Assembly (NCBI GenBank): GCA_002631715.1
Contig: MRSX01000004.1
Span: forward strand, 19,864 to 83,863
Direction: 5' to 3'
Origin: Candidatus Porisulfidus sp. TsSOB
GTDB taxonomy: Bacteria; Pseudomonadota; Gammaproteobacteria; Poriferisulfidales; Poriferisulfidaceae
Length of the DNA: 64,000 nucleotides
Below are positions 46,757 through 48,969 of the stretch, one piece after another. The position numbers and the translations under genes are program-made. Position 1 is the stretch's first letter; every line of letters begins with the position of its first letter. The notes beneath the pieces are model-generated. The model saw only the letters and a list, made by a program, of their open reading frames with translations. It had not been told where the DNA came from and did no database searches.

Positions 46757-46883
46757 AACAATACTTCCTCCGTAGCCCATTTATTATATACAGAGGGGAG
46801 GGGGTTTGGACACCCAGGCTGGAATCCGTCTGGGGTAGACTATGAGCCGTTTTGGAATGTGTCCAATGCGCGAGGAATTCGTC

Positions 46884-47723
46884 GTGTCCGCGAAGAAAGC
46901 AGGTGCATTCGCTTGGCTCGTGACGGGTCTGACGCTGGTGGCCGCACCTCCGGCGCTGGCCGAATCCGCCCTGCACAAAGCGGCCCGGGCGGGGAATCTC
47001 GCGGAAGTGCAGAAACTGCTGGATTCGGGCGCAGACGCCAATTCATTCGAGCAGGGCAAGACCCCGCTGCATCATGCGGCCCTGATTAATCCAAATCCCG
47101 AGGTTGTGCAGGCTTTGCTGGATGCCGGGGCTCAGGTAGGCGTGAAAGGGCATAACGACATGACGGCACTGCATTTTGCGGTGGTCAACCCCACCCCGAT
47201 GTCCGCACATACGCAGTCGAACGCGGAAGCGAGAAACAAATCGGGCGAGACGGCCCGGCGCCTGGAGGTGATCCAACTGTTGCTGGATGCCGGAGCGACG
47301 ACGTATGCGAAGAACGAGGACGGCCTGACTCCCTTGCATCTGGCGGCAGGCCATTACTGGGATCCGGAGATCGTGGACACACTGCTGCTGGCCGGGGCAT
47401 TCGTGGATGCGCGGGCCGAGAACGATGCAACCCCCTTGCATTTTGCGGCGGCCTTCAACGGGAATCCGGAGGTGGCGCGATTGCTCCTGGATGCCGGGGC
47501 TGATGCGAACGCGCAGGATACCGGGGGCCTGACACCCCTGCATTTAGCGTCGCGTTTCAGGGGGTATGCGACGACCGCACAGATGCTGCTGGATGCGGGC
47601 GCGGATGTCAATGCAAAAGACCGGGAAGGCAAGACTCCGCTGGATTATCACGCGGAGAGAGAAAATCCCAGTTGGCCCCAGGTTCTCAAGGACGCTGGCG
47701 GGAAGTGCAACAGGAGCTGCTGA
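46884..47723 (+). CDS. Secreted ankyrin-repeat protein (about 7 repeats)
   Basis: GAGGAA RBS plus GTG 46884; Sec signal MSAKK...ALA; repeated G.TPLH.AA....EV..LLDAGAD.NA. Confidence 0.92.
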   Translation: MSAKKAGAFAWLVTGLTLVAAPPALAESALHKAARAGNLAEVQKLLDSGADANSFEQGKTPLHHAALINPNPEVVQALLDAGAQVGVKGHNDMTALHFAVVNPTPMSAHTQSNAEARNKSGETARRLEVIQLLLDAGATTYAKNEDGLTPLHLAAGHYWDPEIVDTLLLAGAFVDARAENDATPLHFAAAFNGNPEVARLLLDAGADANAQDTGGLTPLHLASRFRGYATTAQMLLDAGADVNAKDREGKTPLDYHAERENPSWPQVLKDAGGKCNRSC

Positions 47724-47853
47724 GAGCCGGAATTGGTTTTGACCACGATCTTCGACAAAGCCCCACTGAAAAGTGCTACCATCACATTGGAAACAGGGGA
47801 TGGAGTTCCCTGTCGTTATTTCCCTGAATAATTAAAGACAAGAGGTCATCCAA

Positions 47854-48894
47854 ATGAAATCAAAATGTTTTGCTTTAGTGTCGGCTGTCATGCTGACCGC
47901 CGCTGCAAGCCTCGCGGTTGCTGGGCACTATGGAGAGCACAAGGAAGGACATCATGGTGGGCATCATGGCAAGAGTTTCTTTATTCAGCGATACGACCAG
48001 AACGACGATGCCCAAGTGACCGCAGATGAATTCGAGCAGGCACGCCGGGCTCGCTACGACCTAACTGACGAAGACGACAATGGCCTGATCGATGTCGACG
48101 AGTACGTACAGGGGTACGCTGGCCGCCTGAACAAGAAAATCGAAAGGGAACGCAAGGGGCACATCAAGCAGACCCGCCGTCGCTTTGGTGCCTTGGACAA
48201 AAATGACAACGAACAGATAGAGTGGGAGGAATACGAAGCGTCTGGTGAACGCAGTTTCAAGCGGTTTGATGTGGACGAAAATGGCGTCATCAACGCGGAT
48301 GACCCACGCCCCAAGCGCAGTTGCAAACATAAGTGCAAGGGCTACAAGGGCAAAGGGAAGGGCGACAAGGCAGACGCCGGCCACGATCATGAGCACGGCG
48401 AGGACTACAAGCGCCACCACGGCAAGCACAAGGGCATGTGTAAAAAGTATGCGAAGCGGGTCATTCACATGCCGACCACCCACAGAAAGAAAGGGATGAT
48501 GCGGAAGTACGATACCGATAAGGACGGCTCGATCACGCATGAAGAATTCAGTGCCAAGCGCCGCGCCGACTTTGACAGGACAGACGAGGACGGGGACGGA
48601 AGGCTGAACTCGGAGGAGTATGCGCTAGAGTTCGGCAACCGCTTGGACGAGAAAATCGAGAAGACCCGGGAGAAAAAACTGAAGCGGGCGAAGAAGCGTT
48701 TCGGTGTGATGGACAAGGACGAGAATGGAGGAATAAGCTTCGAGGAGTATCAGGTTTCAGGGCAGAAGATGTTTTCGCGCCACGACACGAATGAAGATGG
48801 CGTCGTGTCCGAAAGCGATAGGCCCAGGCATAAACACGGGAAAGGGCACAAGGATCACTCTGCGAAGTCGAGAAAAAAAGAACGCGACCATTGA
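47854..48894 (+). CDS. Secreted multi-EF-hand, His/Lys-rich protein
   Basis: Signal peptide ending AVA; eight DxN/DxDG-type 12-residue loops in two 4-loop halves. Confidence 0.85.
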   Translation: MKSKCFALVSAVMLTAAASLAVAGHYGEHKEGHHGGHHGKSFFIQRYDQNDDAQVTADEFEQARRARYDLTDEDDNGLIDVDEYVQGYAGRLNKKIERERKGHIKQTRRRFGALDKNDNEQIEWEEYEASGERSFKRFDVDENGVINADDPRPKRSCKHKCKGYKGKGKGDKADAGHDHEHGEDYKRHHGKHKGMCKKYAKRVIHMPTTHRKKGMMRKYDTDKDGSITHEEFSAKRRADFDRTDEDGDGRLNSEEYALEFGNRLDEKIEKTREKKLKRAKKRFGVMDKDENGGISFEEYQVSGQKMFSRHDTNEDGVVSESDRPRHKHGKGHKDHSAKSRKKERDH

Positions 48895-48969
48895 TGTTGC
48901 TGGACGGCGGTCGCGGCCGACCGGTTTCGATACGCCAGATCTCTCATGGCGTTTTCCGGAAATTCCGTC

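Follow-up and report, generated by a model that had tools for sequence, protein, structure and literature searches.

In a window of 64,000 nucleotides from Candidatus Porisulfidus sp. TsSOB (contig MRSX01000004.1; the window is the whole stretch of DNA analyzed here), the gene for the sigma-54 factor, rpoN, is missing from the interval between lptB and hpf (positions 46757–48969), and two plus-strand genes, encoding an ankyrin-repeat protein and an EF-hand protein, stand in its place. Comparison of this interval, hereafter the slot, between 14 Porisulfidus genomes and 50 outgroup loci with lptB as well as hpf points to a genus-wide deletion of rpoN, followed by recurrent insertion that brought two independent cargo genes for predicted exported proteins into the window slot, with sigma-54 itself probably being lost; we consider this explanation, taken as a whole, likely to be correct. 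Its ingredients are known, in that sigma-54 is dispensable in reduced symbionts, exported ankyrins are abundant in sponge symbionts, and variable defense islets are found between core genes. What is new is the case itself, in that the slot vacated by rpoN in Ca. Porisulfidus has become a hypervariable islet and its cassettes duplicate the lptB 3′ end; the lptC–lptA fusion and the family of lanmodulin-like tandem EF-hand proteins were noticed on the side.

Absence of rpoN From the lptB–hpf Interval

The rpoN gene lies between lptB and hpf at 50 of the 50 outgroup loci and in none of the 14 Porisulfidus genomes, and given its constancy in the outgroups, its absence is far from a chance event. 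The order lptB–rpoN–hpf had been described as highly conserved in the first-pass annotation, which also reported neither a sigma-54 open reading frame (ORF) nor a remnant of one in the slot. The outgroup counts agree with the first statement, and tblastn searches with five outgroup RpoN proteins agree with the second, as no rpoN remnant was detected in the 64-kb window or at any Porisulfidus locus (best E value, 1.5). In the outgroup RpoN encoded at locus L013, the Pfam domains Sigma54_AID, CBD, and DBD are all present. The other members of the rpoN operon neighborhood (hpf, ptsN, rapZ, and npr) all persist in the window and follow one another on the strand of lptB, as judged from Pfam matches.

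The source lineage, Ca. Porisulfidus, is a sponge-associated sulfur-oxidizer with chromosomes of 1.55–2.0 Mb, several of which are closed (1.57–2.02 Mb), and has served as an outgroup of the SUP05 sulfur oxidizers (PMC9123188). When the RapZ protein of the window was compared with one genome per species, 13 loci were found at 69–98% identity (next best, ≤52%), all labeled as Ca. Porisulfidus or as sponge-derived metagenome-assembled genomes (MAGs) of Gammaproteobacteria or Chromatiales, and the sequencing runs that hold window sequence are sponge metagenomes. The window organism is thus a genome-reduced sponge symbiont.

The slot is 2.2 kb long and holds no credible ORF other than the two plus-strand genes. 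It is flanked on the left by lptB (48970–49695, minus strand; Pfam ABC_tran and BCA_ABC_TP_C), which encodes the ATPase of the lipopolysaccharide-export ABC transporter and is 69–99% identical among Porisulfidus loci, and on the right by hpf (46436–46756, minus strand; Pfam Ribosomal_S30AE, E = 8e-25), which encodes a ribosome hibernation factor of the family named ‘sigma-54 modulation protein’ in Pfam. The hpf start codon at 46756 yields a product of 106 amino acids, and the same call is made on contig L081 (see below). A divergent promoter region (46757–46865), with the hpf −10 sequence TATAAT and the hpf Shine–Dalgarno sequence GGAGGA, separates hpf from the ankyrin-repeat gene (46866–47723, plus strand; 285 amino acids; Ank_2, E = 1e-63; Ank, E = 2e-40), for which an alternative ATG at 46842 would give 293 amino acids. 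The EF-hand gene (47854–48894, plus strand; 346 amino acids; EF-hand_1/_7 at E of about 1e-20, and also EF-hand_5/_6) ends at a convergent spacer of 75 bp that runs from its stop codon to that of lptB (48895–48969), a sequence crossed by contigs of runs X1 and X3. The slot boundaries (48970 and 46756) and the opposite-strand placement of both genes, as first annotated, are borne out by the gene map and the Pfam matches.

Because the sequence is of metagenomic origin and its GC content falls to 0.51–0.55 across the EF-hand gene, foreign DNA joined between lptB and hpf by an assembly or binning error has to be considered. The same gene order is however repeated on an independent ENA contig, L081, which encodes an identical EF-hand protein, and closed chromosomes of sister species agree, the lptB/EF-hand/ankyrin/hpf content being found on the closed 1.96-Mb chromosome L083. 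In addition, the hpf/ankyrin, ankyrin/EF-hand, and EF-hand/lptB junctions are all crossed by Logan contigs in three separate sponge-metagenome runs (2015, 2023, and 2025), and the dip in GC content results largely from a composition rich in Lys, Asp, and Glu, as the GC content at third codon positions (GC3) of the EF-hand gene is still 0.67. A Hi-C raw-read run gave zero reads at the sampled depth. With misassembly, which the first-pass annotation had named as a possible flaw, thus excluded at both junctions by L081 and the contigs of the three runs, an artefactual origin of the arrangement is extremely improbable.

Order of Deletion and Insertion

In a neighbor-joining tree of concatenated PtsP, RapZ, LptB, and PtsN, loci L010, L011, and L076 form the earliest Porisulfidus branches, and in all three the distance from the lptB stop codon to the hpf start codon is only 57–89 bp, with a TATAAT sequence inside. 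As the slot is empty in these earliest branches, deletion came first and insertion later. L009 is the next branch, and its slot holds only a pair of AbiEi/AbiEii genes. In later branches an orthologous ankyrin gene stands beside hpf, with variable additions toward lptB, L004 being an exception. A single rpoN deletion at the base of the genus, then repeated later colonization of the scar, is the simplest history consistent with these sequences. In its first step, a clean deletion in the genus ancestor left lptB 57–89 bp from hpf and hpf on its own TATAAT; in its second, as the comparison of relatives shows, this short interval became a recurrent insertion site. The crown-group ancestor had the ankyrin gene beside hpf, and later cargo was gained, lost, or swapped between lptB and the hpf-proximal ankyrin gene. 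When the locus was inspected in relatives, as the first-pass annotation had proposed, rpoN was found to be gone genus-wide and the cargo to be variable.

The hpf promoter is consistent with this order. On the plus strand, positions 46783–46788 read ATTATA; in the orientation of hpf this is TATAAT, and it precedes the hpf start codon by 27 nt. TATAAT is found 25–50 nt before the hpf ATG in 14 of 14 Porisulfidus sequences, those with empty slots included, and the distance is about 25–28 nt in all but L076. The proposal that hpf has its own TATAAT at this position is thus upheld by both the sequence and its conservation. A promoter scan recognized no −35 sequence for hpf, and upstream of none of the three genes (hpf, ankyrin, and EF-hand) did it find both hexamers of a sigma-70 promoter; only the hpf −10 box is supported, by its conservation in all 14 sequences. 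These features fit with transcription of hpf–ptsN–rapZ as an operon of its own since the loss of rpoN, and inserts on the opposite strand would block read-through from lptB.

Cargo of the Slot and a Possible Mode of Insertion

Orthologs of the ankyrin gene are present in L001–L008, L012, and L083, and are adjacent to hpf in all of these except L004, where an AbiE pair lies between the ankyrin gene and hpf and a half-length EF-hand gene lies beside lptB. The additional cargo differs from locus to locus: none in L001; an AbiE pair in L003; an AT-rich segment with NYN (PADLOC HEC-09) and PIN-like genes in L005; genes for an AAA-ATPase/PDDEXK_9 protein, SecB, two 2OG-Fe(II) oxygenases, and a collagen-repeat protein with a YadA anchor in L012; AbiE, a half-length EF-hand gene, and a gene for a 531-amino-acid ankyrin in L002; an AbiE remnant and an EF-hand gene in L006; an EF-hand gene and a gene for a 495-amino-acid ankyrin in L007; an EF-hand gene in L008; and an EF-hand gene, AbiE, and DUF433 in L083. 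AbiE (AbiEi/AbiEii, a type IV toxin–antitoxin and abortive-infection system) shares the slot in sister species with strong Pfam and PADLOC matches (PADLOC: AbiEi, 4e-88; AbiEii, 2e-96); being absent from the window itself, it is relevant here only as a sign of a general insertion site.

In L003, L005, L006, and L008, the newest cassette is bordered on its inner side by a second, diverged copy of the last 35–83 bp of lptB, which adjoins the older ankyrin or EF-hand gene; in gapless comparison, the copies are 83 nt at 73% identity in L003, 82 nt at 78% in L005, and 46 nt at 76% in L006. As the inserts in these relatives have direct repeats of the lptB end on both sides, circular DNA probably entered there by a single crossover of the Campbell type.

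Integration hotspots and islets between core genes, including islands that target tRNA genes or the 3′ ends of other genes, often carry defense systems. The Porisulfidus slot resembles them in its conserved flanks, its highly variable cargo, the anti-phage nature of part of that cargo (AbiE and the HEC-09-like NYN), and the direct repeats of the target 3′ end. It differs from them in that the islet is very small (0–6.4 kb) and has neither integrase nor transposase, that the repeats are only 73–78% identical, and that it owes its site to the deletion of rpoN. The lptB 3′ end and the vacated rpoN interval may form a dedicated attachment site for small, integrase-free cassettes, an idea that, weighed jointly with that of a tandem lanmodulin-like protein class (see section EF-Hand Protein), we regard as unlikely. 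Such cassettes, carrying host-interaction genes (ankyrin, collagen-like adhesin, and EF-hand protein) together with anti-phage genes (AbiE and NYN), may circulate among sponge-symbiont populations, and the slot may in that case be a ‘symbiosis islet’ that resembles an integron and depends on a recombinase gene outside it.

Some of the cargo has features of its own. The L012 slot (L012:4775–8134) encodes a collagen-triple-helix protein with a YadA-type anchor, two 2OG-Fe(II) oxygenases that are possibly prolyl-hydroxylase-like, and a SecB homolog, and looks like another candidate eukaryote-like adhesion cassette. On a chromosome of the L012 species (L082:5477–8912), an EF-hand gene lies beside genes for tRNA-Cys and tRNA-Gly and an AAA-ATPase/PDDEXK_9 gene. 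The latter copy is 91% identical to that in the L012 slot, which suggests that recombination between AAA-ATPase/PDDEXK_9 copies may have moved cargo between two hotspots. Just upstream of abiEi in L003 (7942–7988) and L002 (5613–5659), there is a near-perfect 23-nt inverted repeat, TATATATCCTATATAATCGTCCT and AGGACGATTATATAGGATATTTA, which is probably an autoregulated AbiE promoter/operator.

Fate of Sigma-54

Sigma-54 has most likely been lost altogether through genome reduction, rather than moved. This is favored by the clean, genus-wide deletion, the small genomes, −24/−12 motifs at chance level, and the lack of an activator among the scanned genes. Candidate −24/−12 sites, a search for which had been part of the first-pass proposal, were counted within the 64-kb window; the count is at chance level (31 observed versus 31.6 expected), with low power over 64 kb. 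No sigma-54 activator was found among the scanned window genes.

A relocated rpoN, with Porisulfidus still using sigma-54 encoded elsewhere in the chromosome, would account for the retention of the nitrogen-related phosphotransferase system (PTS-Ntr; ptsP, npr, and ptsN), rapZ, hpf, and glnD, and the sigma-54 evidence here is that of the 64-kb window and the Porisulfidus loci. This alternative is nevertheless improbable in view of the deletion without remnant in all 14 genomes, the reduction of these genomes to 1.55–2.0 Mb, the lack of excess −24/−12 motifs, and the absence of sigma-54 activators among the scanned window genes; moreover, relocation of rpoN out of the lptB–rpoN–hpf operon is rare, and its loss is common in reduced symbionts. 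Porisulfidus is like host-restricted and genome-reduced bacteria that have lost rpoN in having a small genome from whose canonical position rpoN is gone, and unlike them in keeping the neighboring PTS-Ntr, hpf, and rapZ genes, the absence here being one seen at the locus. Literature that links rpoN or sigma-54 with Porisulfidus, SUP05, or Thioglobus was looked for, without a usable result; the sole match to ‘rpoN’ applies the name to a rubredoxin gene.

The gene for PII uridylyltransferase, glnD (9125–11878), and rpoE–rseA–rseB (61238–63403) are also kept in the window, so that the nitrogen-signaling front end and the envelope-stress sigma factor persist without rpoN in the slot.

Relationship Between the Ankyrin and EF-Hand Genes

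In the window, the genes for the ankyrin and the EF-hand protein are adjacent on the same strand, both encode proteins with predicted signal peptides, and their adjacency recurs in L004, L006, L008, L081, and L083, features in line with the view of the first-pass annotation that a co-functional, two-gene secreted host-interaction module took the place of rpoN in one event. The relatives speak against such a swap, for the slot is empty in three basal species, the ankyrin gene is present without an EF-hand gene in the slots of four species (L001, L003, L005, and L012), another ankyrin gene stands between the two in L002 and L007, and the EF-hand gene of the L012 genome (encoding P0008) is about 550 kb from the slot. 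In the window, the two genes are separated by a gap of 130 bp that contains a terminator-like hairpin on the plus strand (ACAGGGGATGGAGTTCCCTGT, 47793–47813, followed by a T-rich tail; a weak call by consensus scan), an arrangement that is consistent, if weakly, with separate transcription units. The partners of the EF-hand family are furthermore DUF4198, ApbE, and TonB-receptor proteins, not ankyrins. Replacement of rpoN by a joint module accordingly has very little probability, the independent occurrence of the two genes in relatives having been named beforehand as grounds for abandoning it, and a Ca2+-linked host-interaction system, which had been suggested as its function, is not supported. 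By the comparison of sequences, the two do not form a unit and are best read as independent cargo genes.

Recent en-bloc horizontal transfer of both genes was rejected, as their synonymous divergence (dS) from sister species equals that of flanking core genes. Both genes have lower GC3 values (0.71 for the ankyrin gene and 0.67 for the EF-hand gene, versus 0.78–0.86 for core genes), which is compatible with a foreign origin followed by long residence. Decay to pseudogenes was likewise rejected, since every species has intact ORFs and the ratio of nonsynonymous to synonymous divergence (dN/dS) is below 0.4; both genes are functional and under purifying selection.

Both predicted proteins begin with a signal-like sequence of the Sec type, in which a positive N-region and about 20 hydrophobic residues precede an AxA motif (see below).

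Ankyrin Protein

The ankyrin protein consists of about 6–7 repeats with a periodicity of 33 amino acids, and its top PDB matches are ankyrins and designed ankyrin-repeat proteins (DARPins). Its N-terminus, MREEFVVSAKKAGAFAWLVTGLTLVAAPPALA followed by ES, has the features of a signal peptide, with KK, then 20 hydrophobic residues (mean hydropathy, 1.8), then an ALA|ES cleavage motif. The gene is under constraint in comparison with sister species (dN/dS, 0.10–0.40), with dS like that of the flanks and a nonsynonymous rate 2–3 times that of its neighbors. A phage origin was rejected, as no relative was found in viral contigs.

In experiments, signal-peptide ankyrins of sponge symbionts and of sponge-associated phages lowered phagocytosis by amoebae or macrophages (bioRxiv 10.1101/608950, and Nguyen et al., 2014, as cited there). 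The slot ankyrin is like the Nguyen et al. proteins and the ANKp of ‘Ankyphages’ in being a short, ankyrin-only protein that lacks a transmembrane domain and has a predicted signal peptide at its N-terminus and in being encoded by sponge-associated gammaproteobacteria, and unlike them in that no phage context was found and that it has a fixed chromosomal site beside hpf. By analogy, the third step of the proposed history would be that the predicted-exported ankyrin, a typical eukaryote-like protein of sponge symbionts, most likely interferes with phagocytosis or digestion by host cells.

All slot ankyrins, short or long (46866–47723 in the window; L002:6627–8222; L007:6698–8185), end in a C-x3-C motif, for example GGKCNRSC in the window and GGKCNTSC, GGVCSENC, and similar sequences elsewhere. 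This conserved motif could form a disulfide, bind a metal, or direct sorting. A C-terminal C-x3-C motif is not known from the described ankyrins of sponge symbionts or phages.

EF-Hand Protein

The EF-hand protein has a predicted signal peptide in residues 1–23 (MKSKCFALVSAVMLTAAASLAVA, followed by GH) with an MKSK start and an AVA|G cleavage site, and a mature mass of about 37.8 kDa. It contains eight canonical 12-residue loops of the DxDxDG type in four pairs, with spacers of 12 residues within a pair and 31 residues between pairs, and is divided into two homologous halves that are joined and flanked by linkers rich in His, Lys, and Gly. In an AlphaFold2 model (mean predicted local distance difference test score [pLDDT], 82.9), both halves exceed 90 and form helix–loop–helix units. 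The gene has a dN/dS of 0.20–0.31 and a dS like that of the flanks.

The protein database holds 82 homologs, of which about eight are close (69–84% identical) and, where contigs were examined, belong to Porisulfidus; the broader homologs, 30–54% identical over the full length, come from free-living Paraglaciecola, Parahaliea, Pseudoxanthomonas, and Xanthomonas. Signal-like N-termini are found in all of six homologs examined except P0008, the gene call of which starts later, with the upstream DNA encoding one. In four of four contexts inspected (Paraglaciecola, Pseudoxanthomonas, and two MAGs), the eight-EF-hand gene lies in a cluster with the gene order DUF4198, EF-hand, ApbE-DUF2271, and TonB receptor (L084:4974–10823, L085:5189–11048, L086:5033–11942, and L087:5161–10896). 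PepSY_TM follows in two of the four clusters, ExbB/ExbD genes are found alongside in three and TonB in one, and ExbB/ExbD/TonB/DUF3450 genes are often neighbors of the cluster. No described role was found in the literature for the EF-hand component of the DUF4198/ApbE/TonB-receptor cluster. On the basis of this context in free-living gammaproteobacteria, the EF-hand family is a bacterial periplasmic one that is tied to TonB-dependent uptake, and not eukaryote-derived. Of the eukaryote-like character that the first-pass annotation assigned to both proteins, only that of the ankyrin stands, the EF-hand protein belonging to a bacterial family. In Porisulfidus the EF-hand gene is detached from the uptake cluster and is mobile, as the remote location of the gene for P0008 illustrates.

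The best PDB sequence match of the EF-hand protein is lanmodulin (6mi5, E = 4e-8), and the only fold match with a target-relative template-modeling (TM) score above 0.3 is also lanmodulin (8fns, TM = 0.66; Foldseek E = 0.07). A calmodulin-like fold was rejected, with target-relative TM scores of ≤0.30. The published criteria for lanmodulin include 12–13 residues between adjacent EF loops, Pro at position 2 of one or more loops, and a size of about 12 kDa with four EF-hands (PMC11845868); lanmodulin is further marked by picomolar, selective binding of lanthanides. The protein might be a tandem lanmodulin-like, periplasmic binder of lanthanides or another scarce metal, left over from TonB-dependent uptake and without relation to the host. 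In addition to the sequence match and the TM score of 8fns relative to calmodulins, this is suggested by the 12-residue spacing within pairs, which matches that of lanmodulin (PMC11845868), by the TonB-receptor, PepSY, and ApbE context of the free-living relatives, and by the His-rich linkers. Several features make this alternative improbable, namely that Pro is missing from position 2 of every loop (where Q, E, K, V, T, E, K, and T are found), that a carboxylate occupies loop position 9 in only two of the eight, that the protein has eight EF-hands and about 38 kDa versus four EF-hands and 12 kDa, that the Porisulfidus gene stands apart from any uptake cluster, and that the Foldseek E value is only 0.07.

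Put as a comparison, the EF-hand protein shares with lanmodulin (6mi5 and 8fns) a predicted periplasmic location, short spacing of paired loops, the best sequence and fold matches, and, through its free-living homologs, a neighborhood with TonB-dependent receptor and PepSY genes; it differs in its eight loops in two halves, its size, its lack of Pro2, and loop position 9, which is mostly of the Ca2+ type. We conclude that, on current evidence, the EF-hand protein is not a member of the lanmodulin family and probably acts as a compact periplasmic binder of Ca2+ or other metal. In the third step of the proposed history, such a binder would be neither an acquisition from eukaryotes nor the partner of the ankyrin. 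That it is the founder of a tandem lanmodulin-like class of periplasmic metal binders is a possibility that shares the low joint probability given above to the dedicated attachment site.

Evaluation and Implications of the Proposed History

Several points weigh against the history of deletion, recurrent insertion, and loss of sigma-54 as proposed here. The evidence on sigma-54 covers the window, which is about 3% of the genome, and a protein-database search for RpoN is uninformative on Porisulfidus, the best 120 of 8000 matches all being at least 58% identical. The slot in the window has no duplicated lptB end, and no integrase or recombinase domain was found in or beside the slot when the slot ORFs of the window and its relatives were scanned. 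Homologous recombination between strains via the conserved flanks could explain part of the variation and probably contributes to it. The signal peptides of both proteins were judged from sequence features, and export beyond the periplasm lies outside what such features cover; the functions proposed for the two proteins are drawn from their families and from literature precedent. No expression data were found, none of the runs being identifiable as RNA.

On the proposed history, the locus is a clean and datable case of the remodeling of a reduced symbiont, in which a global regulator is deleted, its neighbors are left on a promoter of their own, and the scar turns into a landing pad for genes of host interaction and defense. 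If sigma-54 is indeed absent from a genome that keeps PTS-Ntr, hpf, and rapZ, Porisulfidus would be another natural case in which the functions of these genes are separated from sigma-54. Strain-level differences in eukaryote-like proteins could be typed at the lptB–hpf interval, which is fixed and easy to amplify, and two concrete, predicted-exported proteins become available for the study of sponge symbiosis. Current understanding is not overturned.

Other Features of the Window

Upstream of lptB, the block yrbG–kdsD–kdsC–lptC/A–lptB is conserved. In this envelope-gene neighborhood, yrbG is at 52176–53126 (minus strand), and kdsD and kdsC (minus strand) lie between yrbG and the lptC–lptA fusion ORF (49692–50756, minus strand). 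This ORF of 354 amino acids matches Pfam LptC in residues 17–187 and LptD_N/LptA in residues 225–331. It is full length at all Porisulfidus loci, and the outgroups give partial query matches, which fits two separate genes.

Downstream of hpf, the minus-strand genes supported by Pfam and by the gene calls of L081 are ptsN (45976–46428; PTS_EIIA_2), rapZ (45106–45972; RapZ-like_N/PapZ_C), an EIIA-Man-type gene (44708–45109), an NPr/HPr gene (44430–44711; PTS-HPr), and ptsP/EI (42700–44439).

Two further regions of the window were noted. A stretch of about 2.97 kb between tilS and pyrG (35785–38754) is absent from contig L081, which is from a 98%-identical strain. It contains an ORF of 930 amino acids (35862–38654, minus strand) that has no Pfam match even at E = 0.1 and shows a hydrophobic, signal-like N-terminal segment, Thr/Gly-rich repeats, and the C-terminus ...SLDLQF; from these features, it looks like an autotransporter adhesin. 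Downstream of an MMPL transporter gene, accessory genes occupy 55928–58166, including a gene for a DUF4172-Fic protein (55928–57043), a YafQ/RelB toxin–antitoxin pair (called on L081), and a gene of the steroid 5-alpha-reductase family (57405–58166; PF02544, E = 2e-53), an enzyme type that is commoner in eukaryotes.

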